A stretch of 64,000 bases of DNA from Candidatus Nomurabacteria bacterium. GTDB lineage: Bacteria; Patescibacteriota; Minisyncoccia; Phycocordibacterales; UBA9973. The translations under genes were made by a program, and so were the position numbers. Positions 2,417 through 34,989 of the stretch are shown here, piece by piece; positions within the stretch are counted from its first letter, which is position 1, and each line of letters opens with the position of its first letter. Under the pieces are notes generated by a model. That model was not told the origin of the DNA, ran no database searches, and saw nothing but the letters and a program-made list of their open reading frames with translations. The stretch lies in assembly GCA_026396015.1 (NCBI GenBank), contig JAPLXP010000004.1, forward strand, positions 1,546 through 65,545, read 5' to 3'.

Positions 2417-4591
2417 ATGGAATACAAGGAACCAAATATTGATAAAAAACTATTACAACCATATAATCCTGCGGAAACAGAGGATCGTATTTACAAGCAA
2501 TGGGAAGAAAGCGGATTCTTCAATCCTGATGTATGTATTGAAAAGGGTGCGACATCTCCTGATGCAAAACATTTCTCTATTATTATGCCCCCACCAAATG
2601 CAAATGGGCGTCTTCATGCTGGCCATAGTCTCGTGATGACACTACAAGACATCATGACTCGCTACCACAGAATGAAAGGTGAAAAGACTCTCTGGGTACC
2701 TGGAGCAGATCATGCTGGATTTGAGACTCAAATAGTATACGAGAGAAAACTAGAAAAAGAAGGCCGTTCACGATTTGACATGAAGCCAGAGGATCTCTAC
2801 AAAGAAATTTATGACTTTACAATTGAAAGTAAAAAATTCATGGAAGCTGACGTGCGTCGCATTGGTGCCTCTTGCGATTGGTCACGTGAAAAATTCACGC
2901 TCGATCCTAGTGTTGTAAAAACGGTACAACAAACTTTTGACAAAATGTTCAAAGACGATTTGATCTACCGAGGTGATCGTATTGTAAACTGGTGCGCAAA
3001 GCATCAGACTTCCCTTTCTGACCTAGAAACAGAATTTAAAGAAAAAGCTGATAAATTTTATTATTTCAAATATGGACCTTTTACAATAGGTACAGCTCGC
3101 CCTGAGACAAAGTTTGGAGATAAATATGTCGTTATGCATCCAGATGATAAAAGGTACGCAGAATACGAGCACGGAGATAAATTCATAGCTGAGTGGATCA
3201 ATGGACCGATAGAGGCGACTATAATAAAGGACGATAGTATCGATATGGAATTCGGAACAGGTGTGATGACTATAACACCATGGCACTCAAATGTTGACTT
3301 TGATATCGCAGAAAAATACAAATTAGACAAGGAGCAGATTATAGACTGGAAAGGAAAACTCATGCCAATAGCTGGCGAGTTTGAAGGTCAGCATATATCC
3401 AAAGCACGCGCTCAAATAGTAGAGAAATTAAAAGAAAAAGGACTACTTGTAAAAGTTGATGATGAGTACAAACACAATGTAAAGGTATGCTACAAATGTG
3501 AGACAGTCATAGAACCACAAATAAAAGACCAGTGGTTCGTAAAAATGGCACCACTTGCAAAAAGAGCACTGGAGGTAGTAGAAGCTGGAAAAATAAAATT
3601 CTACCCAAGTAACTATGAAAAGATTTTCAAATACTGGATGGAAAATACAATAGACTGGAATATTTCAAGACAAATCATCTGGGGAATTCCAATTCCTGCA
3701 AAGATTTGTGAAAAGTGCAAGAAGGGTTATTCTGATCTTGAAGATGAACTTACTACTTGTGATTGTGGTGGTAATCTACAAAAAGATACAGATACTTTTG
3801 ATACATGGTTCTCATCAGGACAGTGGACACTGCTCGCACTAGGATACCCAGATTTGAAGGATGTAAATATTTATCACCCAACTAGTGTGATGGAGACTGG
3901 TGCTGATCTAATTTTCAAATGGATTCCTCGAATGGTTATTTTTGCGCTTTATCTAAAAGATGAAATTGCTTTTCAAGATGTATACCTAAACGGAATGGTA
4001 AATGATGAAAAGAATCAAAAAATGAGCAAATCAAAAGGCAACGTAATCAGTCCGGTTGATTTGATAGATATTTACGGAGCAGATGCCCTACGTATGGCAT
4101 TGATAGTTGGCAACACACCAGGGACTGACATCGCACTATCAAAAGATAAAATCAAAGCATATAAACACTTTGCAAATAAGCTCTGGAACATCGCACGCTT
4201 TACCCTATCAGCAACAGAAGGTATCGTATGTGATCCAACATTCAATGAATACACAGACAGTGAAAAATCTTTAATTGAGGAAAGAGATAATTTAATTTCT
4301 GAAATTACAAAGGAAATGGATGAATACAAATTCTATCTAGTCGGAGAAAAGCTCTACGCATACGCATGGACACGATTCGCTGATGTGATAATCGAAGAGA
4401 GTAAATCAATACTAAATGGCGAGGATGTGAATGCAAAAATGGCTCGTGCACAATTCCTACTGAATACTCTTGAAAAGATTACGACAGTACTACACCCATT
4501 CATGCCATTCGTCACAGAAGAATTATGGTCCATTATTCATAAAGACACAGGCCTACTAATGGTAGAAAAATGGCCAAAAATAAATAACTAA
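2417..4591 (+). CDS. valS: Valine--tRNA ligase (short form lacking the C-terminal coiled coil)
   Basis: PPPNANGRLHAGH (HIGH), GADHAG, DWNISRQ, DTWFSS, KMSKS motifs. Confidence 0.96.
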   Translation: MEYKEPNIDKKLLQPYNPAETEDRIYKQWEESGFFNPDVCIEKGATSPDAKHFSIIMPPPNANGRLHAGHSLVMTLQDIMTRYHRMKGEKTLWVPGADHAGFETQIVYERKLEKEGRSRFDMKPEDLYKEIYDFTIESKKFMEADVRRIGASCDWSREKFTLDPSVVKTVQQTFDKMFKDDLIYRGDRIVNWCAKHQTSLSDLETEFKEKADKFYYFKYGPFTIGTARPETKFGDKYVVMHPDDKRYAEYEHGDKFIAEWINGPIEATIIKDDSIDMEFGTGVMTITPWHSNVDFDIAEKYKLDKEQIIDWKGKLMPIAGEFEGQHISKARAQIVEKLKEKGLLVKVDDEYKHNVKVCYKCETVIEPQIKDQWFVKMAPLAKRALEVVEAGKIKFYPSNYEKIFKYWMENTIDWNISRQIIWGIPIPAKICEKCKKGYSDLEDELTTCDCGGNLQKDTDTFDTWFSSGQWTLLALGYPDLKDVNIYHPTSVMETGADLIFKWIPRMVIFALYLKDEIAFQDVYLNGMVNDEKNQKMSKSKGNVISPVDLIDIYGADALRMALIVGNTPGTDIALSKDKIKAYKHFANKLWNIARFTLSATEGIVCDPTFNEYTDSEKSLIEERDNLISEITKEMDEYKFYLVGEKLYAYAWTRFADVIIEESKSILNGEDVNAKMARAQFLLNTLEKITTVLHPFMPFVTEELWSIIHKDTGLLMVEKWPKINN

Positions 4592-7920: not shown

Positions 7921-7998
7921 ATGCGTACAGCTTTTTCAGTAGTAGCAATACTAGTGATCATAAGCATGATACTGCTTTATATCCCAACACTTAAATAA
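7921..7998 (+). CDS. Possible 25-aa membrane microprotein
   Basis: Manual translation MRTAFSVVAILVIISMILLYIPTLK*; fills the gap between the FtsB-like gene and lepA. Confidence 0.4.
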   Translation: MRTAFSVVAILVIISMILLYIPTLK

Positions 7999-21934: not shown

Positions 21935-24659
21935 TTATTTCACCAATTTTTTAATCTTTGCGCGAGTTTGTGGACCAAATATACCTGTAGCAGGCAGGCC
22001 ATTTTTACCCTGCCATTCTTTTAATGCAGCCTTAGTTAAATTACCAAAACTACTTGTCGCTCCATTTGATCTAAGTTCTTTTGCTTTTGGACCTTTAGCT
22101 TGTGATATTAAAAATTCTTGTAAAGTCTTTACGCTATCACCCACTACACCAGTTTCCAGAGTAATATTTATTTTCCTAATAGAAACAACAACCAAGTTAG
22201 AAAAATGTGCTAATTCTGTATTTGTGGGGTTATTAAAAGGTAATGAATTATTTACTAAAGACACTTTGATTTCTTTTTTATTATTTATATTTTCAGTAAA
22301 CGAAGAGACAACAGAGGCGGCTACATGCATAACTGGTGCAAAATTTGGATGACCGCTACTAACTACAGGGATGACTGGTGGTGATACAAACAAGCTCGGA
22401 TCAATAATATAGGCAAAAGTAGCTGTGGAAGAATTATTCAAAATATCACAAGCACGGACATATATAGTCCCCGTAGTAGACACTGTTATTGCATTTGAAT
22501 AAAGATTACCACTACTACAATCAGTAGGGATACCGGTTGTAGAATAACGAATTGAATCAGAGCCAACAGCTGTGATTAAAACGCTTCTCTCTGTTGGATA
22601 TGAACCCGCCACAGGATTTGCTATTGGTATTTCAGGTGGGGTCGTGTCTATGACATAAACAAAAGACGCAGTAGATGAATTTCCAGCTGTATCACAAGCT
22701 CTGACATATACAGTCTCTGAAATTGAAACAGAAATTGCTCCTGTATATAGAGTTCCACTACTACAATCTGTTGGTGTATTTGAAATTGAGTATTTTATCA
22801 AATCACTCCCCGTAGCAGATAAAATTACAGATTGAGTAGAGTTATATAGTCCAGCAACTGGTGATACGACAGGTGTTGATGGTGGTGTAGTATCAATAGT
22901 GTAAGTAAATGAAGTCGTCGATGAATTGCCTGCTAGATCACAAGCACGGACATATATAGTCTGTGAACTTGATACTGAAATATTTGTTGAGTATAAAGTT
23001 CCAGATGAACAGTCTGCTGGAGCACCAGATGTAGAGTATCTAATTGAATCAGAACCAGATTCACATGCGAGTGTGTAGATAGTCTGTGAAGTAGATACAG
23101 ATATTGCTCCTGTGTATAGAGTGCCACTACTACAATTTGCTGGTGTACCAGATGTTGAGTATCGAATTGAATCTGAGCCGGTAGCAGAGAGTGATACTGA
23201 TTGAGTAGAGTTGTAAAGTCCGGCAACGGGATTTGACACAGGAATACTAGGTGGCACAGTATCGATAGTATATACAAAACTTGCAGTACTTGAATTCCCA
23301 GCTAGATCACAAGCACGTACATATATTGTTTGTGTTGTGGATACAGATATAGCAGTTGAATACAAATTATCTGAAACACAAGATGCTGGTATACCAGACG
23401 TAGAATATCGAATTGAATCCGAGCCAGATGCAGATAAAGTAATAGACTGAGTACTATTGTATAAACCTGCAGGAATAGATACTGTCGGTGTTGATGGTGG
23501 TGTAGTATCAATAGTATAAGTAAATGAAGTCGTAGATGAGTTCCCTGCTAAATCACAAGCTCTGACATAAATAGTCTGTGTTGTTGATACTGAGATTGAT
23601 GTTGAATACAAAGTTCCAGATGAACAGTCCGATGGAGTACTAGATGTAGAGTAGCGGATTGAATCACTTCCACTTGCTGAGAGAGTCACTGATTGAGTTG
23701 AATTAAATAGTCCGGAATCAGGTAGAGCAGTAGCACTCGATGGTGCAATAGTATCGATAGTGTATGCAAATGAAGCAGTGGATGAATTCCCAGCTAAGTC
23801 ACAAGCACGTACATAGATTGTCTGTGAACTTGATACTGAGATATTTGTTGAATACAAAGTTCCACTTGAACAATCAGCTGGTGTACTAGATGTAGAGTAG
23901 CGAATTGAATCTGAACCGATAGCCGACAAAGATACAGATTGCGTTGAATTAAATAATCCAGCACCTGGAGAAGCTACAGGTGTAGACGGCGGCACAGTAT
24001 CAATGGTGTATGTAAATGAAGCAGTGGATGAATTCCCCGCTAGATCACAAGCGCGAACATTTATAGTATGACTAATAGAGATTGAAATATTGGTTGAGTA
24101 TAAAGTTCCACTTGAACAATCTGCGACAGCAGAATCTAGAGCATAGCGAATCAAATCAGAGCCGAGAGCAGAGAGTGATACTGATTGAGTTGAATTAAAT
24201 AATCCAGCAGTGGGTGTTGCCACAGGAGTACTCGGCGGCACAGTATCGATAGTATATGCAAAACTTGTGGTACTTGAATTACCAGCTAGGTCACATGCAC
24301 GCACATATATTGTGGATGTTGTTGATACTGAGATTGATGTTGAATACAAAGTTCCAGATGAACAGTCCGCTGGAATGCCAGATGTTGAGTAGCGGATTGA
24401 ATCACTTCCACTTGCTGAGAGAGTCACTGATTGAGTTGCATTGTAAAGTCCTGCCGAGGGTGTTGCCACAGGAGTACTCGGCGGCACAGTATCAATAGTG
24501 TATGAAAATGAAGCTGTGGATGAATTGCCTGCTAGATCACAAGCACGGACATATATAGTCTGTGAACTTGATACTGAAATATTTGTTGAGTATAAAGTTC
24601 CAGATGAACAGTCTGCTGGAGCACCAGATGTAGAGTATCTAATTGAATCAGAACCAGAT
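21935..24659 (-). CDS. C-terminal part of a giant surface protein: tandem ~82-aa chitobiase/beta-hexosaminidase-C (Fn3-associated)-like repeats plus a peptidoglycan-binding domain
   Basis: Repeated P..AGLYNSTQSVTLSA.GSDSIRYS....P.DCSSGTLY...IYVRACD.AGNSS, then VKTLQEFL...FGNLTKAALKEWQ...TGIFGPQTR. The frame extends upstream of the GTG at 24487. Confidence 0.8.
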
Positions 24660-25810
24660 AGCTAGGTCACATGCGAGTGTGTAGATAGTCTGTGAAGTAG
24701 ATACAGATATTGCTCCTGTGTATAGAGTGCCACTACTACAATTTGCTGGTGTACCAGATGTAGAGTATCGAATTGAATCTGAACCTGAAGCAGATAATGT
24801 GATTGATTGAGTTGAATTGTAATATCCAGCTATAGGACTAGCCACAGCCGCAGATGGTGGAGTCGTATCTATTGTATAAGCAAAAGAGGCAATCGTAGAA
24901 TTATTTGAAATATCACAAGCACGTACATATATTGTTTGTGAACTTGATACAGATATTGCACCATTATATAGCGTACCACTACTACAATCTGCAGGATAAC
25001 CACTATTTATTGAATACCGAATAAAACTACTACCAGTGGCAGATAATGACACAGATTGAGTTCCATTATAAATACCAGCAGGTACGGACGATACTGGATC
25101 AGGACATCCAGCCGTGTGAAAAGTATTATCTCCAGATACAGTATTATTCCCTACTAGATCACGAGATGAAATTCTATAATGATAAATAGTGCAGACAGTC
25201 AGACTAGATAAAGATGTATCATGAGTCATGACAGTAGATCCGGAGCTCAGACTTCCAGAAGAAGAACCATACGAAGAAGTCAAACCATAATCAACTAAAC
25301 TATAGGTATTCTCTTGAGTAATCCAAGTCACATCTGCTGTCGTACTAGTGGTGGTAGTATTGATGCTACTCTGAACTGGAGATTTATAATCTACACTCAC
25401 AGCAGAGCTTTGATAATAATTTCCAGTCTGACCAGAACTACTATGAGGCAAGAGCCTAAGATAAAAAGATCCTTCTTGATTTACTAAATCAGTAAGACCG
25501 TCCCATACAAAACGATGAGAAATACCAGATGGAGAAGAAGTTAACCCCGTAATGCCACTATGCGTACCGTCGCTTGATTTTGGTGTGGCAGTATGCTGTT
25601 CACCACCAAATGCTCCAGTACTGGAATATTCATAAGTAGGAAAATCTATAGTACCACTATTATCATCTTTTAAATTATAATCAAAATCTACTAAACCACT
25701 CAATTGACTCCTCAAAGAAGAAGAACTAAAAGTTAAAGACGGTTTTGCTGGTGTAACCTCACTAATATCAATCACATTTATTGGTGTAATTCTCCAAGCT
25801 GTTCCAGGTC
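24648..25810 (-). CDS. Middle segment of the giant surface protein (Ig/Fn3-like domains plus first repeats), frameshifted at both ends
   Basis: VTWITQE..SLVDYGLTSSYG...YHYRISSRD Fn3-like motif; same repeat type as the downstream segment. Confidence 0.7.
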
Positions 25811-27849
25811 ATAAATACTATTCCACTTGAATTCGGTGTCACAGAATTAAAAGTAGCAGTAGCACAAGAAGATGTACAAGCAGACCCACCTGTAGATAGT
25901 GATACATTTGCACCTACGTTATTATAGAATTGCAGTGGTCCCTGAGTAGATACAGAACCTGATCCTTGTACTGTAAAATAGCCTTGGGTCAATCCACCAT
26001 TTTGATTTTTTGTAGAACCAAATAAAATAACTTTATAATATTTTGCTGGATCTAAATGTCGAATTTCAATTTTACCAGGAGATTCAGTCCCAGAATAAAC
26101 AACTATATCTTTTGCTATTTTAGCATTTGGATACAAGCCTGTTCCATCTGTAGTAGCTTGTGCACCTTCCATAGAAGCTGAGCCTGTTTTTAAATTGTCA
26201 TTATTTGTATTTGTCGCTTGTGGCAAGGCTACAGTCAAAGATGAAGATACATTGCTAGTATCTACCAATGACTGAGAGACTTTTTCTGCAGAAAATGAAT
26301 CGTTGGTATTTACTTCATTCCAATACATTCCATTTGTGGAACTACCAGACACGCTATCTAGTGCAGTCGTAGCACTATTAACCCCGAGATTTATGAGCCA
26401 TCTCCTACCGACGGGAACAATATTATTAATACGAGAAACAAAAGCATTTTTTTCAACACTAGCCGGCAGGAAATTTGCGAAGGTTGTAGCAGTGTCGATG
26501 TCTGTTTGAGAGCGACTAGCCTCTGCTGTAGATACCACAGTCTCTACGTGTGTAAAATCATTAGAAGTAAACACAGCTCCCCAATCAACGTTAATCAATC
26601 CAGTATTCAGATTTTCACTATGTGCAGTAAATTCCCCATTTGCATAAGAGATAGATTGAATATCTGCATTTGATGTCACTTTCAAAGAAAGAGCATCTCG
26701 TCTCAATCCAGCCGGAACACTACTGGTGTCCAATGTAATAGTCAAAACATTACCAACTAGATTTGTAGATACTCCAGTATTTTGTTTTACTGCTAAATAT
26801 TCATAAACTTCTTGAGCTGGTGCAACCCATGCAGTATCATTACCAACACGTCCATATGTATTTGAAATATGATCCATTAAAGCTTTATAATCAGTCCAAT
26901 TCATACTACCACCAGTAGCAACACCAACGCGATGAGTAAAACCAATACCCCACAATTTAGTGCTACCAGTACTGTTTGTAGCGAGAGTATCAACAAAATC
27001 ATTTACCGTAGTAGCACCAGTAAAACGATCACTACTATAAAAATATCGATAAGCAAAAAGATGATTCAAATCTATATTCGAAGTCACATCCATACCAGTA
27101 GTAGAAGGATTTACTGTTCCTCCAGAATAAGTAAAGGAAGAACTTTCACTGGCAAAAAGTTTGTACCCATGATTGAAAGCAGGGTCGGCATAATTTCCAT
27201 CCCCAGCAGGAGGTACAAATTCTGATGTCGCAGGGATACTACTATTTGAAGATAACAAAGAAAGATTTTGCTCTATTTCATAATTGTAATCAATAGTACT
27301 TGCGCCATGTGGAGCAGGATATGAATATACGTAATTTGCACCTAAGGTAAGAGCTGACGCATGAGACCAACTATGGTTTGCAATATCAAAACCTTTATTA
27401 TAAATATCAGTAAGATTTGCCCATGTAAATAAATTCACCCCCGTATGAATGTCTGCATATCCATTATTATAATTTGTACTATTCCAAATCATATCACCTA
27501 AAAACGGATGACTTGAAAGTGCCGCAGATCTACCAGACCCATCAGTATAAAAAATACCGCCATAGGATTCACTACGTAAAGCGCTAGTACCACCATATAA
27601 ATATTTAAACCCGTTTTCATACTGATCATAACTACCATCATCAAACTGAAAACTGAAGGCAAAATTCTTATTATATTTAAGTGGAGTCTTTATAATAGTG
27701 GGAGATGCTGGTGTAGTAGCAAAAGTCACAGTGATAACCTTACTATTTGAAGCACCAGTTGTAGATGGCTTCTCAATAAAAAAACCACAAACAATCACAA
27801 GTGTGGCAAATATTGAAAGTATAAAAATTTGAGATAATGTTTTTTTCAT
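25768..27849 (-). CDS. N-terminal segment of the giant surface protein: signal/TM anchor plus polysaccharide deacetylase (CE4/NodB)-like domain
   Basis: FSFQFDDG and DIANHSWSH metal-binding motifs; N-terminal hydrophobic helix. Confidence 0.75.
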   Translation of the reverse strand: MKKTLSQIFILSIFATLVIVCGFFIEKPSTTGASNSKVITVTFATTPASPTIIKTPLKYNKNFAFSFQFDDGSYDQYENGFKYLYGGTSALRSESYGGIFYTDGSGRSAALSSHPFLGDMIWNSTNYNNGYADIHTGVNLFTWANLTDIYNKGFDIANHSWSHASALTLGANYVYSYPAPHGASTIDYNYEIEQNLSLLSSNSSIPATSEFVPPAGDGNYADPAFNHGYKLFASESSSFTYSGGTVNPSTTGMDVTSNIDLNHLFAYRYFYSSDRFTGATTVNDFVDTLATNSTGSTKLWGIGFTHRVGVATGGSMNWTDYKALMDHISNTYGRVGNDTAWVAPAQEVYEYLAVKQNTGVSTNLVGNVLTITLDTSSVPAGLRRDALSLKVTSNADIQSISYANGEFTAHSENLNTGLINVDWGAVFTSNDFTHVETVVSTAEASRSQTDIDTATTFANFLPASVEKNAFVSRINNIVPVGRRWLINLGVNSATTALDSVSGSSTNGMYWNEVNTNDSFSAEKVSQSLVDTSNVSSSLTVALPQATNTNNDNLKTGSASMEGAQATTDGTGLYPNAKIAKDIVVYSGTESPGKIEIRHLDPAKYYKVILFGSTKNQNGGLTQGYFTVQGSGSVSTQGPLQFYNNVGANVSLSTGGSACTSSCATATFNSVTPNSSGIVFMTWNSLENYTNKCD

Positions 27850-27945
27850 GAACAATAATATAGAACATACAAATTATAGCATATTCATAGTTTATAAAAC
27901 AAAAAAATCCTAGCGTTAAAGCTAAGATTTTTTGTTTTGTAAAGT

Positions 27946-28248: not shown

Positions 28249-28278
28249 ATTATGGATATTAGCATAAAAATAAGGTGT

Positions 28279-29208
28279 ATGAAAGGCAAAACTAAAATCA
28301 TCGTGATCCTAGGCCAGACTGCCACAGGCAAGAGTGATTTTGCAGTGGAAATTGCAAAAAATATTGGCGGGGAAGTCATATCTGCTGATTCACGCCAAGT
28401 ATATACAGGTATGGATATTGGTACAGGCAAAATCACTAAAAAAGAAATGCAGGGAGTGTCACATCATCTACTAGATGTCGCCTCACCTACCACAATTTTT
28501 TCTGTATCAAAATTTAAAAAGATGGCTGATAAAAAAATAATAGAAATTAGTAAAAATGGCCATATTCCAATCATCTGTGGTGGTACTGGTTTTTATATTG
28601 ATGCATTAATAGACAATGTAATCCTCCCCTCTGTAAAACCAGACAAAAAACTAAGAACTGAATTAGAAAAAAAATCTACTGATGAGTTATATTCAATACT
28701 AAAAGAGCTAGATGAAAATCGAGCAGAGAATATAGATAAAAAAAATCCGGTGCGTCTTATCCGAGCCATTGAGATAGCGAAAGTCTTAGGCTCTGTCCCC
28801 TCTATATCTAAAAATCCAGAATCAAAATACGATGTGTTAAAAATAGGGCTGGCACTGCCAGATGAAATACTAAAAGAACGCATAAACAAACGTCTACATG
28901 CTCGAATAAAGTCTGGCATGATCAAAGAGGTACAAAATCTTTATGATCAAAATATCTCATGGAGAAAATTAGAAAATTTCGGTCTTGAATACAGGTACTG
29001 TGCACAATTTTTGCAAGGAAAATTTGGAGATACCAAGAAAAAAGAATCGAAAGAAAAAATGATTGAACTACTCAATACTGAAATCTGGCATTATGCAAAG
29101 CGCCAAAAGACATGGTTCAAAAGAGATAAAGACACTATATGGATAAACCCCCTAGAAACTCATGAGAGAGCGAGAGCATTAAAAAAAGTAAAAGATTTTA
29201 TTAAATAA
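28279..29208 (+). CDS. miaA: tRNA dimethylallyltransferase
   Basis: GQTATGKS, ISADSRQVY, GTGK, CGGTGFY and YAKRQKTWF motifs. Confidence 0.96.
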   Translation: MKGKTKIIVILGQTATGKSDFAVEIAKNIGGEVISADSRQVYTGMDIGTGKITKKEMQGVSHHLLDVASPTTIFSVSKFKKMADKKIIEISKNGHIPIICGGTGFYIDALIDNVILPSVKPDKKLRTELEKKSTDELYSILKELDENRAENIDKKNPVRLIRAIEIAKVLGSVPSISKNPESKYDVLKIGLALPDEILKERINKRLHARIKSGMIKEVQNLYDQNISWRKLENFGLEYRYCAQFLQGKFGDTKKKESKEKMIELLNTEIWHYAKRQKTWFKRDKDTIWINPLETHERARALKKVKDFIK

Positions 29209-29238
29209 AAATAGCCCCGATCGGGGCTATTTTTATTT
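29204..29238. terminator. Bidirectional intrinsic terminator
   Basis: aataaaaatagcccc-gatc-ggggctatttttatt between convergent genes. Confidence 0.8.
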
Positions 29239-29243
29239 TAGAA

Positions 29244-29918
29244 TTATTTCAACAAGAAACGTAGGGTAGATACGAGGCGGATTTTCTTCCATTCTGGAGA
29301 TCCTGGATCCTTGTTTACGATATCAAATACTCCTTGATTCCCTCTGTTTACAGTACCCAATTTTGCACCAGAATTTGTGGCGAATTGTGTAGCTGTGTCC
29401 TGGGCATTTTTGATAGCTTCAGCTAACATCTCTGGCTTTACACTATTGAGATCAGAGAATTCAAAAGAGATATTGTTCTGAGTGAGTACTACGCCCTTCT
29501 TTACAAGATTTAGTGTATCATTTGAAGCTGCCTTGGCTAGGTCGACTTTCTTTGTGTACACAGATACTTGGTTTGTAGAATTATAGCGGAATGCAGCCTC
29601 CTTGTATGTATCTTGATAAAGATTTACTGGTGCGACATTGATTTCTGTATCCTCAAAACCTTTTTCCTTCAAGAAAGCTTTTATTGAAGTGATATTTTTC
29701 TCTGTATCAGAATAGAGAGAGTCAATACTGTTAGATTTTACCTCAAAAGTGAGGGCCCAGATAGCGGTATCAGATTTTACGATTTTCTCAGATAGACCTT
29801 TTACCTCGACATATGCATTTTGCTTTGAAAAATTTTGTGCAGCAAAAAAGAATAACAACCCAAAGACAACGACTGCTAGGCTAATAACCCAAAGACTGTT
29901 GTTTTTTAATGTTTCCAT
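29244..29918 (-). CDS. SIMPL (DUF541) domain protein
   Basis: VEVKGLSEKIV, KPEMLAEAIKNA, A.QFA.NSG and KKIRLVST motifs. Confidence 0.85.
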   Translation of the reverse strand: METLKNNSLWVISLAVVVFGLLFFFAAQNFSKQNAYVEVKGLSEKIVKSDTAIWALTFEVKSNSIDSLYSDTEKNITSIKAFLKEKGFEDTEINVAPVNLYQDTYKEAAFRYNSTNQVSVYTKKVDLAKAASNDTLNLVKKGVVLTQNNISFEFSDLNSVKPEMLAEAIKNAQDTATQFATNSGAKLGTVNRGNQGVFDIVNKDPGSPEWKKIRLVSTLRFLLK

Positions 29919-30013
29919 ATTTATAGTATACCACATTTTAGAGATTAATGACAGAATCCAAATTAGTATATTACGATATAAAGAAATAATAATAACCTAT
30001 CATTGATAGGTTA

Positions 30014-30313
30014 TTATTTCTCTCCTTTTAATATTATTCTCTTTTCAAATCCTCCCCTGTCTTCAAATTTTTCTTGGCGGACTTTTTCAACATCCATATA
30101 TTCGGGTAATTTACGTAGAGCCTCAATCACCTCCAATACATCAGCTAGTTCCTCCACACTACCATCAGCATTGAATTCATTTGCCTCTTCTGCGAGCTTT
30201 TTAATCAATTCAATCTTGTACTCCTTAAAATCTGCAATCCTCTTTTCATAAGGAATATTTTTTCCATCCAGCATCTCTGGTATTTTGTCTCTGACTAGCT
30301 TGTTGTATTTCAT
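30014..30313 (-). CDS. MazG-like / phosphoribosyl-ATP pyrophosphohydrolase-family NTP pyrophosphatase
   Basis: YNKLVRDKIP, KL.EE..E, EELADVLEV and RGGF motifs. Confidence 0.85.
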   Translation of the reverse strand: MKYNKLVRDKIPEMLDGKNIPYEKRIADFKEYKIELIKKLAEEANEFNADGSVEELADVLEVIEALRKLPEYMDVEKVRQEKFEDRGGFEKRIILKGEK

Positions 30314-30319
30314 ATTTTT

Positions 30320-30781
30320 TTATTTATAATTTTTTCCAATAAAATTCCAAGGTAATTTAATATAAAATTCTGGGAATTTATTTAAGACCCATTGAACATA
30401 GGTATTACTATTTGGACCTAATATAGCATATCGATGCAGATACGGATAGGTTTGCTGTGATTTTTCAATAAAATCGATCGCTTCATATGCCTTAGAATTT
30501 TCATCACCTTCTATAAGACCTTCAAGTCGAGCCCTCTGCAAAAACATCCTTGAAAAATGGAAAAATCCAATACCTAAAAATGGTGGGTAGCTATTGAAAA
30601 ACATATAGCCAGATTCTGGATTGTTCTTGTAATGAGCCACTTCAAAGCGCGAAATAACGCCCTTCTTATTTATTACAAACCAAGGATGCCGTGCAAAATT
30701 GAATGGGAAATAAGCTCCACAGCTAAATAAAAAAACTTGGTATTTATCGGACTTAATTAAATTTTGGAATTCAGGATTCAT
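30320..30781 (-). CDS. DUF3750-like / permuted papain-like protein
   Basis: FARHPWFV and YP...Y..LGPNSNTYVQWVL motifs. Confidence 0.65.
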   Translation of the reverse strand: MNPEFQNLIKSDKYQVFLFSCGAYFPFNFARHPWFVINKKGVISRFEVAHYKNNPESGYMFFNSYPPFLGIGFFHFSRMFLQRARLEGLIEGDENSKAYEAIDFIEKSQQTYPYLHRYAILGPNSNTYVQWVLNKFPEFYIKLPWNFIGKNYK

Positions 30782-31692
30782 AAATTGAGCTTTTTTAATT
30801 TATCATTGAGGGTTGGCAGGATTGGTTTTAATTTATATTCTCCAAATTTATTTATTGACTCATCTATTTTATGTCTAGCTAGATTATTCGTAAAATAACC
30901 ATTTATATGATAATCCACACCACGCTGGTATGTAGCAGCACCCAAATCAATAACACTAAAACCTTTTTGGGGATCATAAAAAAGATTTGAAATCTTAGAA
31001 GGATCAGTGCCTACACCATGTGATGCATACATATTTATCAACTGGACAAGATTGTCGTAATGATCTTGTGAAATGCCATCTATCTCATGTTGGGAATACT
31101 CGTGAACATCTTTACCTACTGCTTTATCCTGAACCACATAAGTAAAATCATTCGCAGTGAAAACGTCGTATGTCTTTATAACATTTTCACCCTCGAGATC
31201 TTTTGTGAGTTTAACCATCGGTAATTCAAATGGATAATTCCCAGCACTAACGATTTTAACTATTTTATTGTTGGGCAAATCATAGACACCTTTCTGATTA
31301 GCACCTTTGTTTGTAATAGATTCCTTGTTCGAAATAAATGACAATAATTCTTTTCGAGCATTCTCATCTCCCTCAAAAGAAAAAGCATCAATTAGTTCTT
31401 TTTGTTTGAAACTTGATAGGTCTTTAAAATTCACGACTTCATCAAGAATTTTTCTTTGGTCCAATAGTTCTGCAGTTGTAATTTTGCCACTTTTTTTAGC
31501 ATCAATAAGTTCACTAGTCTTGATATTAACCAAATAATCTAATACTTCCAGATCTCCACCTGAAGCAGATTTTATACTTTCTATATAATCGGCATCTACT
31601 AAAAAACTAGAAGATTCTTGAATTTCTCCTGTGGGGATATTTTCATTCTGTTTATCGGGTTTATTTATTAAGCTATTTATCTTATATTCCAT
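30778..31692 (-). CDS. Hypothetical protein with a C-terminal protein-kinase-like fold
   Basis: KIVKI, YVVQDKA, DPSKISNLFYD and VIDLG pattern. Start at ATG 31692 overlaps the upstream stop (TAATG). Confidence 0.5.
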   Translation of the reverse strand: MEYKINSLINKPDKQNENIPTGEIQESSSFLVDADYIESIKSASGGDLEVLDYLVNIKTSELIDAKKSGKITTAELLDQRKILDEVVNFKDLSSFKQKELIDAFSFEGDENARKELLSFISNKESITNKGANQKGVYDLPNNKIVKIVSAGNYPFELPMVKLTKDLEGENVIKTYDVFTANDFTYVVQDKAVGKDVHEYSQHEIDGISQDHYDNLVQLINMYASHGVGTDPSKISNLFYDPQKGFSVIDLGAATYQRGVDYHINGYFTNNLARHKIDESINKFGEYKLKPILPTLNDKLKKLNL

Positions 31693-32054
31693 TACTTTAT
31701 GTGAGTTCCTTGATGGAAAAACATCCTCCAATTTTCGCTCTCTTTTTTCCAAATAGAGCTTCGAAGGGATGTGGAATTCAAAACATCATTCACTATTTTT
31801 TCAGTTTTAAATGTCGCAAGAGCACAATCTTCTGATAGAATTTTAACATTAAAATCCTCTACCTTATAGACAACACTGTCTGTATTTGAAGGTAGTCTTT
31901 CGAGTATGTGCTTCTTGTCATAGACTAGGCCTGAACTTCCAAATTCAATAAAATCATCCGAGAGTAATTCGTCGAGCTTTGCAGCAGAAGATCTGACCTC
32001 GGGAGTAAGGAGTGACATTTCTAATGCATATATTTTTTGTTCGATATCGGTCAT
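31692..32054 (-). CDS. DUF4440 / NTF2-like protein
   Basis: LL.PEVR, LLSDDFIEFGSSG, LRSSIW and WRMFFHQGT motifs. Confidence 0.85.
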   Translation of the reverse strand: MTDIEQKIYALEMSLLTPEVRSSAAKLDELLSDDFIEFGSSGLVYDKKHILERLPSNTDSVVYKVEDFNVKILSEDCALATFKTEKIVNDVLNSTSLRSSIWKKESENWRMFFHQGTHIK

Positions 32055-32066
32055 AAATTGATTATA

Positions 32067-32592
32067 TCAGAATTTTAGAACTTCTAATTGTTTCAAAATA
32101 TCTTCTGGTGAATTTATTGTATTTACTACAATCTCCCCTTCCAATGGAACAATATTCAAATCACCGTAATGTTTTTCTAATTCATCCAAATTTGTGATCA
32201 ATTGATTCGGCTTGGGATCCTGACTTCTCTGATTAAATCGAGATTCCCATATTTTTCGGTCAGAACATACAACCAAAATAGAGATCAATTTTATATTATA
32301 ATCATCGCACCAAGTATAAAGATTATTAATTTCCTCTTCTTTGTTAAAAGGAAAATCAAGAATAATTTTTGAATTTAAAACTGAGTTTAATTCGAGTATT
32401 TTAAACATTGAATCATAGCTTGATTTTATTCCGAGTGGTGTGATCATTAACATAGAGTGCTGTGACATCATAAATATCATCCTTTCTCAAGATGGGAATT
32501 CCCCTCTCTATAGCAAAAGCATTTGAGATAGTGGTCTTGCCTACACCTGGACGACCCCTGAATAAAATTACTGTTGTTTGATTGTGTTGCAT
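32067..32592 (-). pseudogene. AAA_33-type P-loop kinase split by a +1 frameshift near 32420
   Basis: GRPGVGKTT...LRKDDIYD...RNKI continues as SYDSMF...IILDFPF in the next frame (atc-a-agc-tat-gat). Confidence 0.75.
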
Positions 32593-32610
32593 AAATATAT
32601 TAAGAAAACT

Positions 32611-32769
32611 AAATCTGCGGGCGATGGAGGGTAATCTTTCCTTACAGGAACAGTACACCTTTTCTAAATTCTTACAGAATCACAGAAAAGCTTTCCGATT
32701 CCTCCACGCGAGCAACGCAGGTTGCTCGCTATCGCCCGCAGTTTTTCACTGCATTCCAAACTGCGGGTA
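32611..32769 (-). repeat. tRNA-Trp-3'-derived multi-hairpin element (distal copy)
   Basis: 32611-32737 matches 34507-34633 with 3 substitutions, by manual comparison. Confidence 0.92.
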
Positions 32770-32828
32770 GTGTGGTTCGCGGTTGGAACTCAAATTAAGT
32801 TAGGTTGTTAAATAGACCTCCAATTTTT

Positions 32829-33341
32829 TTAAGGCAATTTTCTCATCGAAGTTTCATTTTGTTCATCCATCTCCATTTCACCCCACGTTTTTTTCTTTCC
32901 TTCCGGAATGAAAACCGGGTCCCAGCCAAAACCTCTATCTCCTCTTGGTTTTACTGAAATAGTTCCCTTTATTTCTCCTTCAAATACCCTAAAGTCTTTT
33001 CCATCATACAGACCAAAGCACACTTTTGCCAGTGCTGATCTATCTTCATAAGAGTCTAAAATTTTACATAATCCTTCATTATCTAGTTCTATTAGAAACC
33101 ATTTTATTAAAGGACCAGGTAATTTCCCTAAAGCATTGAAAGTTAGAGAAGTATCTTCAACAAGGACAGGCGAGTTTGTCTGCTTATATGCTTGCTCCGC
33201 TTTATATTTTGTAACTTCCTGTAGATCAAGAGATTGAATTTCGGGAATATCTAATTTGAGATGTTTAATAGGATACCCTAAGTGTCGGCTTAATTGTTCA
33301 GCCTTTGAAGAATTCCCAGTAATAAATGTTATGTCTTTCAC
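32829..33341 (-). CDS. rdgB: Non-canonical purine NTP pyrophosphatase (RdgB/Ham1); last helix frameshifted
   Basis: FITGN..K, EIQ, VEDTSL, LPGPLIKW and GFGWDPVF motifs. SMRKLP* would read SMRKIALKKL with one extra A. Confidence 0.88.
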   Translation of the reverse strand: MKDITFITGNSSKAEQLSRHLGYPIKHLKLDIPEIQSLDLQEVTKYKAEQAYKQTNSPVLVEDTSLTFNALGKLPGPLIKWFLIELDNEGLCKILDSYEDRSALAKVCFGLYDGKDFRVFEGEIKGTISVKPRGDRGFGWDPVFIPEGKKKTWGEMEMDEQNETSMRKLP

Positions 33342-33413
33342 TTTTTGATTATACCAAAGTTCTAAAGTACAGAACAGTGCATGAAAGGATGTTTACAGAA
33401 TATGGTTTAAAAA

Positions 33414-33453
33414 TGCGGGCGCGAGGCAAGGTAATCTTTCCTTACAGGAACAG
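33414..33453 (-). repeat. Truncated copy of the tRNA-Trp-derived element
   Basis: tgcgggcg...ggtaatctttcccttacaggaacag matches the element end. Confidence 0.75.
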
Positions 33454-33615
33454 AAAACAGGTAAGGTTATTTTTAACTCTTTCATTATATCAAATCGATG
33501 CATCTCGAACACTTAAAAAGTGATATGGATGATAGAGATATAAATTACACTCCTCTGTAATGTTTCCCTTAAAACTAGGAAGTTTTAAGGGATGCATATT
33601 ATGGCAGGCGAACAA

Positions 33616-34437
33616 TTATATAGAATTAGCTAAAATCTTATTCTTTGTATTTTGAGCATATTCAGCAACAGCATCTTTAGGTTTATTTATTGAACTTGGG
33701 ATTATAAGTATTTGACTGGGATTTTTTACTAATATTTCCAAAACCTCTTCAGCTTTTTTTGTAAATTCCTTATCTGGATTATTACTTTCTCCAAACACAC
33801 TATCAAATAGTGGCATTTCGGGGATATGTTTTATAAATTTTTCAGGAATAATCATCCAAATTCCTCTTCTTATAGACTCCAGCATCATACCTTTTAAAGT
33901 CCCCGCGTATCGAGGTTTTTTAGCATTCACAAATGCTGGGAATACGCTACCATGATTAGCATAACCAAAAGCACTCTTTGGAAGAGGTGTAGTGTACACT
34001 CCACTTCCAAAAGTGGTTCCTGATGCTGTTCCTCTTTTGTAGAAATCAGTATTGTAGAAATCAGAAAATGTTCTAATGTCTCTAGTAACTCCTCTGAACA
34101 AAACAAGGGGTTCTTGATTTTGGTCGATAACCTTACTTGAAGATTTAGAATCATTTTGCCAGTCCCCAAACCACTTTTTAAAACTTTCTGTTCTAGCGAT
34201 TTTCCACCATAATTCACTTTGCTTACCTAAATTAGAAACAAGACCATCAGGTGAAACCAATAATTCACCTTTTTCATTTCTATCAGATTCCCTGATTTCC
34301 AAATTCTCAGCTTCACTAAGAATAGCGACTGAAAGATTTTCCATATCTAAAGGTTGCTCGATCCTTAAATTTTTCTTCACTTCCTGATTAGAATCAATTT
34401 TATTCCTGAATAGTCCACCTTCCATTGAATTTTTCAT
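33616..34437 (-). CDS. ADP-ribosyltransferase-fold protein (ART-PolyVal-like)
   Basis: RTESFKKWFGDW...SKVIDQNQEPLVLFRG...FGSGVYTT...A.GYA...F.AFVN...E.LV pattern typical of polyvalent-protein ART domains. Confidence 0.65.
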   Translation of the reverse strand: MKNSMEGGLFRNKIDSNQEVKKNLRIEQPLDMENLSVAILSEAENLEIRESDRNEKGELLVSPDGLVSNLGKQSELWWKIARTESFKKWFGDWQNDSKSSSKVIDQNQEPLVLFRGVTRDIRTFSDFYNTDFYKRGTASGTTFGSGVYTTPLPKSAFGYANHGSVFPAFVNAKKPRYAGTLKGMMLESIRRGIWMIIPEKFIKHIPEMPLFDSVFGESNNPDKEFTKKAEEVLEILVKNPSQILIIPSSINKPKDAVAEYAQNTKNKILANSI

Positions 34438-34506
34438 ACTAACATTATACCAAAGTTCCAAAGTAAAAACAGTGTATAAAATGAAACTTATTTTATATAG
34501 CTTAAA

Positions 34507-34665
34507 AAATCTGTGGGCGATGGAGGGTAATCTTTCCTTACAGGAACAGTATACCTTTTCTAAATTCTTACAGAATTACAGAAAAGCTTTCCGATTCCTC
34601 CACGCGAGCAACGCAGGTTGCTCGCTATCGCCCAACAAAAAAACAGCCGAAGCTGTTTTTACGTG
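34507..34665 (-). repeat. tRNA-Trp-3'-derived multi-hairpin element (proximal copy)
   Basis: Spacer hairpin, inverted tRNA 3' copy with a gcgagcaac-gcag-gttgctcgc insert, conserved core, then a direct 3' copy. Confidence 0.9.
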
Positions 34666-34736
34666 CGGGCGATGGAGGAATCGGACCCCCACCAAAGGTT
34701 TTGGAGACCTTCGTTCTACCACTAAACTAATCGCCC
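34666..34736 (-). tRNA. tRNA-Trp(CCA)
   Basis: Reverse complement gggcgat...atcgccc-g, anticodon loop ctCCAaa. The T-loop is atypical (tccgatt). Confidence 0.88.
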
Positions 34737-34824
34737 GTATTGATATTTATACCCTTTTATAGTCTTTTTTACAAGTGATTAGATTTATACAAAAAAAATA
34801 AATCCCCATAGTGGGGATTTATTT

Positions 34825-34989
34825 TTAACCAGTTATTTTAGCTTCTTTGTGCTTTACGTTAGTTCGGCAAGTTTTACAAAACTTTTTAAACTCGATCTTT
34901 TTAGTAACGAGTTTCTTGTTTTTGCTGGTATAATAGTTCGCATTTTTGCAAACTGAACATTTTAATCTTAAAAGTCTATCTTGTGACAT
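34825..34989 (-). CDS. rpmG: 50S ribosomal protein L33 (zinc-binding form)
   Basis: Not in the ORF track. MSQDRLLRLKCSVCKNANYYTSKNKK...KKFCKTCRTNVKHKE. Confidence 0.92.
   Translation of the reverse strand: MSQDRLLRLKCSVCKNANYYTSKNKKLVTKKIEFKKFCKTCRTNVKHKEAKITG

Follow-up and report, generated by a model that had tools for sequence, protein, structure and literature searches.

Could single genes be stacked one after another behind a bacterial tRNA gene without an integron integrase? This question is raised by a locus in an uncultured Candidatus Nomurabacteria bacterium (assembly GCA_026396015.1), lying in a window of 64,000 nt, that is, the whole stretch of DNA analysed here (C7:1546-65545 of a 772-kb genome in 14 contigs, labelled G000). 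There, tRNA-Trp is followed by a repeat element, an ART-like gene, a truncated element, an rdgB-like gene, another element and five further genes, all on the minus strand. In a preliminary description the locus had been taken for an integron-like cassette array, in which each addition at the tRNA 3' end regenerates the element together with a promoter. Here, we propose that the rdgB-like unit is, on balance, probably a recombinase-less cassette, integrated via a large serine recombinase that a tRNA-targeting mobile element supplied in trans. Mobile elements of the serine-integrase family likely brought in the stack, at least in part, so that an outcome like that of integrons would be reached with a different enzyme.

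The repeats are of three distinct kinds, namely a tRNA trailer, a leader termed START and a site termed END. Gene order, strand, coordinates and repeats are those previously given, and the two full elements are indeed identical at 124 of 127 positions, while END and the serine recombinases had been overlooked. The tRNA-Trp(CCA) gene (34665..34736, minus strand, as are all features of the array) carries a T-loop motif 22 nt from its 3' end, and this end is the putative attB/attL arm. The rdgB-like unit is composed of START leader 2 (33339..33415, located with the sequence model), a gene of the Ham1/RdgB family assigned by Pfam (32829..33341), whose frame is broken near the 3' end, and END (32761..32826), likely the P arm that remains at attR from the attP of a serine integrase. 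This END is the sole copy found in the genome, and none occurs in the reversed-genome control. The ART-like unit has START only, and the five distal genes have no delimiter.

END is a conserved motif of 55-65 nt (CCTTATT ... TTCCAAC ... tRNA tail) directly behind the stop codons of cargo genes. Among the 93 genomes of the genus set, the exact pattern occurs at 7 places in 6 genomes and nowhere in the reversed control, and five of the six scanned loci with the exact pattern have it beside tRNA-Trp. Scans of wider collections yielded 7 genome and 10 metagenome stretches; among the latter, L039 and L045 are apparently chance matches and two others are duplicates. With a profile, 41 distinct matches of at least 15 bits were obtained in the examined loci, two of them spurious or mis-anchored. 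END stands 13-45 nt past a co-oriented stop codon in 28 of the 39 measurable matches, with a mode of 22 nt, and has a same-strand tRNA gene upstream in 29 of the 41 (Trp 8, Ser 15, Gln 6); both counts include the 18 training sites. The co-oriented single gene with the site after its stop is thus found in the rdgB-like unit and at those 28 matches, and not for the other genes of the array. The genes ahead of END are unrelated (Ham1, NUDIX, NT5C, RelB-type, HIT and others). For example, at L047 a 44%-identical Ham1 gene forms a one-gene unit of tRNA-Trp, gene and END, from which the trailer is absent. In the window, the end of the distal element had been read as a decayed tRNA-end remnant: tail sequence is present there, and it is actually the 3' end of the conserved END plus the antisense arm of the trailer.

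What, then, could END be? Read antisense in the recombinase frame, it encodes RAVWLAVGT in the genome G043 and RVVWFAVGT in the window. A C-terminal tail matching END was found in 4 of the 120 recombinase homologs listed (P0036, P0059, P0065 and P0106), and many of the 120 end instead in tRNA-antisense peptides. The TTCCA of END lies 27 nt from the tail end, compared with 22 nt for the T-loop motif of the tRNA; an offset of 5 is best in 21 of 29 END/T-loop pairs, tied in 3 and not best in 5. According to the part of the study of A118/LI-type integrases drawn on here, the zinc-domain motif occupies positions 16-24 in attP and 11-19 in attB (PMC3783163). The 5-nt offset matches this 5-bp shift, and END is therefore read as an attP arm. 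At attR, END thus likely represents the remaining P arm of attP; the crossover is predicted near the terminal GC, and the END bases that the recombinase protein would contact are likewise predicted from the sequence. By inspection, a mirrored motif gives a partial match in the P' arm of G043 only, and none in START or the spacers.

END is linked with an enzyme by recombinase elements. PF07508 recombinases are present in 73 of the 93 genomes, and 14 of the 30 recombinase genes that were fetched reach, in antisense orientation, into the 3' end of a tRNA gene; the recombinase genes of G043 and G070 overlap the 3' end of tRNA-Trp. The element of G043, assembled from two contigs with an exact 87-nt overlap, has the order tRNA-Trp, antisense recombinase (Resolvase, Recombinase and Zn-ribbon domains), rolling-circle Rep of the G2P type, cargo including a Shedu-domain gene, END and spacer. 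Its END scores 61.5 bits and lies 8 kb out, and the adjoining spacer is the one that directly follows tRNA-Trp in other species. That is, a complete recombinase and Rep element stands at tRNA-Trp and is bounded by END. In addition, elements at tRNA-Gln and tRNA-Glu end in weaker motifs of the END family that carry the cognate tail.

The genome G000 itself has four serine recombinases and two tyrosine recombinases, as came out of the integrase search that the preliminary description had called for, and no integron integrase (IntI) above the cut-off. The tyrosine recombinases were rejected as the agent, neither of them adjoining a tRNA end. Among the serine recombinases, the gene at C9:1767-3521 is large and ends within the antisense of the tRNA-Asn 3' end; END was looked for there and none was found. 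The others are located at C14:5924-7549, C14:15193-end and C2:260898-end; two, near-identical, are truncated by the ends of their contigs, and upstream of this pair there is an inverted copy of the 3' end of the remaining gene, which terminates in an xRT-type tail.

Phages and free forms were also considered. The strict END pattern had no match in viral sequences, and a viral source of END was rejected, the looser pattern having given a single chance match inside a capsid gene. A close-range search returned no viral relative of the Trp recombinase. No excised circle or empty-site joint appeared among the contigs of runs X1 and X3, which is not evidence, since contigs drop rare variants.

The block shared by the first two units had been described as a promoter, and it does recur as the leader START in other arrays and species, where it lies downstream of a tail copy or of END, at the tRNA genes for Ser, Gln and Trp, and precedes unrelated genes. 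The START model gives 15 matches of at least 33 bits in 9 of the 93 genomes, 8 of them outside the training set; only two lie within the window. A tail-like motif precedes 9 of 16 START sites, compared with 11 of 141 generic extended -10 boxes of this genome, although 8 of the 16 are training sites and the anchoring is rough. Five of the 16 sites open a START-one gene-END unit, with five unrelated genes, and one further case has a broken gene. Arrays of the same layout stand at tRNA-Gln in G061 and G064, where START in places comes directly after END, and at tRNA-Trp in G012. The extended -10 box was read from the sequence; the START boxes are absent from the output of the sigma-70 scan, which overall gave about as many predictions as shuffled sequence. 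We rejected the idea that START copies the P' arm of the recombinase, the match between them being inverted and only 11-14 nt long.

In the third type of repeat, the 127-nt trailer, a hairpin interrupts an antisense copy of the tRNA tail; a structured core and a sense-oriented copy of the tail are its other parts, and the trailer folds far more strongly than shuffled sequences (z about -8). A motif scan of the genome gave 11 trailer cores, 10 of them no more than 160 nt behind a tRNA or tmRNA gene, the 11th being the distal copy of the array, and the arms of each copy fit that copy's own tRNA. Compared with element 1, trailers of two other species are identical at 118 of 123 (G067) and 118 of 124 positions. 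The trailer fits no Rfam family, and only tRNAs reach the Rfam threshold in the array. Trailers are probably passengers of their own, arriving at the tRNA tail independently or together with a circle. At L127 (G061 C13), two trailer spacers, one behind the tRNA and one behind END (near 7990 and 6890), are mutually reverse complementary. Elsewhere in G000, the 3' end of tRNA-Thr(TGT) recurs behind the gene in three direct copies spaced 72-75 nt apart (C6:10040-10330). A link with RAYT transposases and repetitive extragenic palindromes was rejected: the two Y1 HUH genes of the genome have their own short flanking repeats, which are not trailer, START or END. These stand-alone RAYT-like genes lie at C6:40499-41176 and 79348-80055, and one has a palindrome that recurs inside the gene.

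Does the region behind tRNA-Trp gain and lose genes, as had been supposed? We compared 77 tRNA-Trp loci, nearly all from the genus set, with an automatic and approximate classification of the slots. The slot is closed by miaA or rpmG in 68 of them, open at a contig end in 7 and occupied by a serine recombinase in 2. Among the 68 closed slots, 15 are empty, 10 have a trailer only, 20 cargo only, 17 cargo and trailer, and 6 cargo with END. The 91 cargo open reading frames (ORFs) group into 72 families, so the slot is indeed hypervariable. The longest slot of the sample is that of the window, with 5460 nt. Its seven flagged cargo genes have no match in the other 76 loci (E 1e-6), while SIMPL occurs in 5. 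As regards a possible cis-mobilizable element, the tRNA end and END are present at the rdgB-like unit, and the cargo is absent from the other 76 loci. On a quick miaA tree, G012 and G072 are the nearest relatives. Both have SIMPL in common with this genome, and a distal stretch of 2.6 kb is common to the two, but they differ beside the tRNA. Shared genes are thus distal and private genes proximal among the closest relatives, in agreement with the sequential order formerly suggested.

Several further observations concern this slot. In 13 genus loci (e.g., L016, L176 and L183) the first cargo gene begins no more than 7 nt from the 3' end of tRNA-Trp, which leaves no space for a promoter or ribosome site, and it would be co-transcribed with the tRNA. 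An insertion that made no use of the tRNA end is seen at L012 (G012): the start of an 88-aa gene is duplicated and flanks a neighbouring 145-aa gene (about 2550-3120, behind tRNA-Trp). A gene for a helix-turn-helix protein of 218-222 aa lies directly upstream of tRNA-Trp at L016, L034, L037 and L132, and the relatives with this gene also have END units or a recombinase. In the window (28252-34989) and 65 genus loci, tRNA-Trp and its slot point toward miaA in 39 and toward rpmG in 26 relatives; on the quick miaA tree this requires 17 changes, at least 7 of them forced by well-supported branches, with a shuffled mean of 20. The scatter in orientation points to an inversion that took place repeatedly between two palindromic terminators, or to artefacts of assembly.

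Based on these results, the following course may be envisaged for the rdgB-like unit. A circle carrying END joined to the leader would recombine with the last bases of the tRNA gene, the crossover falling near the terminal GC that is common to Trp, Ser and Gln tRNAs. Such an integration would keep the tRNA intact and shift what had followed it, that is, trailer 3 and five older genes, behind END. Trailers could have been added separately at the tail or brought in by the circle. The ART-like unit probably arrived later, and its END would have been lost or never present.

A number of observations weigh against this proposal. A motif of the END family stands at the far end of just 5 of 24 recombinase elements and is strong in G043 only, although several of these stretches are short, and the second recombinase element at tRNA-Trp, that of G070, is without it. 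The four recombinases of the present genome are no more than 38% identical to the Trp enzyme of G043, so a close cognate is lacking. END is present in just 6 of the 43 cargo-bearing closed Trp slots, and consequently most cargo came otherwise or lost its marks. Ten of the 16 START sites, that of the ART-like unit included, are not directly closed by END. START is also unlike the element-side arm of G043 and has no mirrored binding motif at the expected distance. Finally, the breakpoint between G012 and G072 lies at a gene start, away from any repeat, which contradicts the expectation that gene content changes exactly at repeat boundaries.

Therefore, other explanations have to be weighed. END could be the attP arm of full tRNA-Trp elements that lost recombinase and Rep by deletion; the small units would never have moved independently, and streamlining would have drawn END against the last useful gene. 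Full elements do terminate in END, most slot cargo has no delimiters and a cognate recombinase was not found in this genome. Moreover, tycheposons and the Dehalococcoides islands grow by successive integration and decay, in the parts of these reports drawn on (10.1101/2020.12.28.424599; PMC3146451). However, the spacing from stop codon to END is tight (mode 22 nt), and one and the same START precedes unrelated genes in several species, joined to them behind three types of tRNA; both are hard to explain by independent deletions; in the full elements L118 and L119, besides, END is not behind a co-oriented stop. We regard this relic origin, the main rival, as unlikely, though deserving real weight. 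A true integron, or a cluster of attC sites lacking an integron integrase (CALIN), with attC cassettes and a tyrosine integron integrase, is exceedingly improbable: the small co-oriented accessory genes and the site right behind the stop codon would fit, but the best match to TIGR02249 in the genome has 87 bits against a cut-off of 265, and the sole attC-like palindromic match of the pattern scan lies inside the kinase-like gene, with none between genes. That the array is not an attC/IntI integron had already been anticipated.

The trailer itself has also been proposed as the recombination site of the cassettes, regenerated with the promoter at each addition. Cargo is flanked by near-identical trailers here, in G012 and in G064, and a contig from a lake (four runs, one other study) joins an 85%-identical DUF4440 gene directly to a tRNA tail, trailer and spacer. 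But trailers stand behind many tRNAs without cargo, END units without trailers exist, START directly follows END in other arrays, and the five distal genes of the window are free of repeats. Gain of a cassette without a new trailer copy is seen across species, and copies are already 95-96% identical between species, so that 124 of 127 need not imply local regeneration. The claim that the element is regenerated at each addition was thus not upheld, and the trailer is very improbable as the site. Homologous recombination, with tRNA and trailer as anchors for relatives' DNA (linear, or a trailer-bearing circle), could add genes without a site-specific enzyme and carry END passively. The different spacers of the two trailers are in line with it, as are the junction of END and spacer resembling L043, expected if END kept the donor spacer, and the 13 loci where cargo starts within 7 nt of the tRNA end and bears no mark. 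It leaves the conservation of END, its placement at stop codons and its link with recombinase elements unexplained, and we hold it to be very improbable. Integration of the rdgB-like unit by a serine recombinase acting in trans remains the reading that we favour.

The remaining features of the array are as follows. The spacer hairpin of trailer 1 (34634..34664) has the same sequence as the spacer directly after tRNA-Trp in G067, and precedes trailer element 1 (34507..34633). START leader 1, with an extended -10 box (34434..34512, sequence model), and the ART-PolyVal-like gene of 273 aa (33616..34437), which has no END behind it, come next. What remains of an older trailer, its 3' part with a degenerate copy of the tail (33414..33458), was recognized by sequence comparison, and the truncated trailer with the promoter block is 78.5% identical to the first copy over 107 nt. 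Behind END, the spacer of trailer 3 (32738..32760) is unlike spacer 1, with an END-plus-spacer junction similar to that in L043, and trailer element 3 (32611..32737) is the second full copy. The five genes that follow are a P-loop (AAA_33-like) gene in two frames (32067..32592), a DUF4440 gene (31692..32054), a kinase-like gene (30778..31692), a DUF3750 gene (30320..30781) and a small nucleoside triphosphate pyrophosphohydrolase-like (PRA-PH/MazG-like) gene (30014..30313), after which there is a terminator-like hairpin. The frame changes thus affect two genes, the rdgB-like and the P-loop gene. As for the gene labels proposed earlier, Ham1/RdgB, DUF4440, DUF3750 and SIMPL pass the Pfam cut-offs, while ART-PolyVal, AAA_33 and Pkinase (a weak match) fall below them, and the MazG-like label is based on language-model neighbours only. 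The SIMPL gene (29244..29918), an older occupant common to the closest relatives, had been taken as the boundary; it lies inside the variable zone, which ends at the convergent miaA (29208).

Within 29244-34664 there is no recombinase or replication module, and the GC content gives no signal marking the array. Both full trailer copies were recovered in contigs from a run that is possibly the source, as separate short pieces at about single-copy depth and with zero differences from the window; no single contig of that run spans a whole trailer element, and consequently the gene order across the repeats depends on the assembly. Outside the array, the window contains at 21935-27855 long surface-protein-like ORFs with 246-nt repeats, split into several frames.

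To our knowledge, few mobile elements are recognised in the ultra-small bacteria of the Candidate Phyla Radiation, and despite this the contents of the slot differ in nearly every species. The locus connects an abundant enzyme family with three types of repeat for which there was no explanation, and adds a Trp case with a complete parent element, a START leader and all three repeat types in one array. Our literature searches, in which some reports were screened by title or the start of the abstract, returned no report of such elements or arrays in Patescibacteria. We tentatively suggest, as a possibility with rather less than even prospects, that Patescibacteria have an integron counterpart based on serine integrases. 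Circles devoid of a recombinase, equipped with a conserved promoter leader and an attP arm, would take up single ORFs, each from its start codon to its stop codon; serine recombinases directed at tRNA genes, which exchange their C-terminus when they integrate, would add these circles in trans, one upon another, behind the Trp, Ser and Gln tRNAs. With a named enzyme (that of G043), a target (the tRNA-Trp end) and two substrate ends, gene acquisition in uncultured bacteria becomes testable. The open question of integrons, how one gene gets fitted between leader and recombination site, is now posed for a serine recombinase as well, and integrases specific for tRNA ends are of possible use as tools.

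How does this system compare with known ones? In the portion of PMC3146451 relied on here, the ssrA islands of Dehalococcoides have a large serine recombinase, DsiB, on the reverse strand by attL, its 3' end overlapping the site; they stand in tandem behind a tRNA-like gene, and some members lack the integration module and are proposed to be cis-mobilizable. Those islands are multi-gene and have a 20-bp direct repeat from a T-loop crossover (PMC3146451, same portion), whereas in the present system usually only 4-7 tail bases are shared and the boundary is the recombinase's own C-terminal coding arm. Here, the units can consist of one gene with a conserved leader, full elements have a rolling-circle Rep, and trailers are interspersed. 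The tycheposons of Prochlorococcus likewise occupy tRNA genes in streamlined genomes, where newer elements push older ones inward and decay follows; however, tyrosine recombinases serve 910 of the 937, with partial tRNA repeats left behind, and no conserved single-gene leader/end pair is described in the part of that report consulted (10.1101/2020.12.28.424599). The domain set is common to the system and the large serine integrases of the A118/LI phage type, and in both the zinc-domain motif of attP lies 5 bp farther away from the crossover than that of attB, as far as the sections of PMC3783163 used here go. In the present system, by contrast, the motif is on one arm per site, attP lies inside the recombinase gene, and the substrate apparently includes recombinase-less units. 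Integrons and CALINs are polar arrays of small accessory genes, with the site directly after the stop codon and no enzyme within the unit. The present system resembles them in its polar array of small genes, its post-stop site and its enzyme-free unit, but it has no IntI and no attC hairpin; instead, it is anchored on a tRNA end, and its units bring their own promoter leader.

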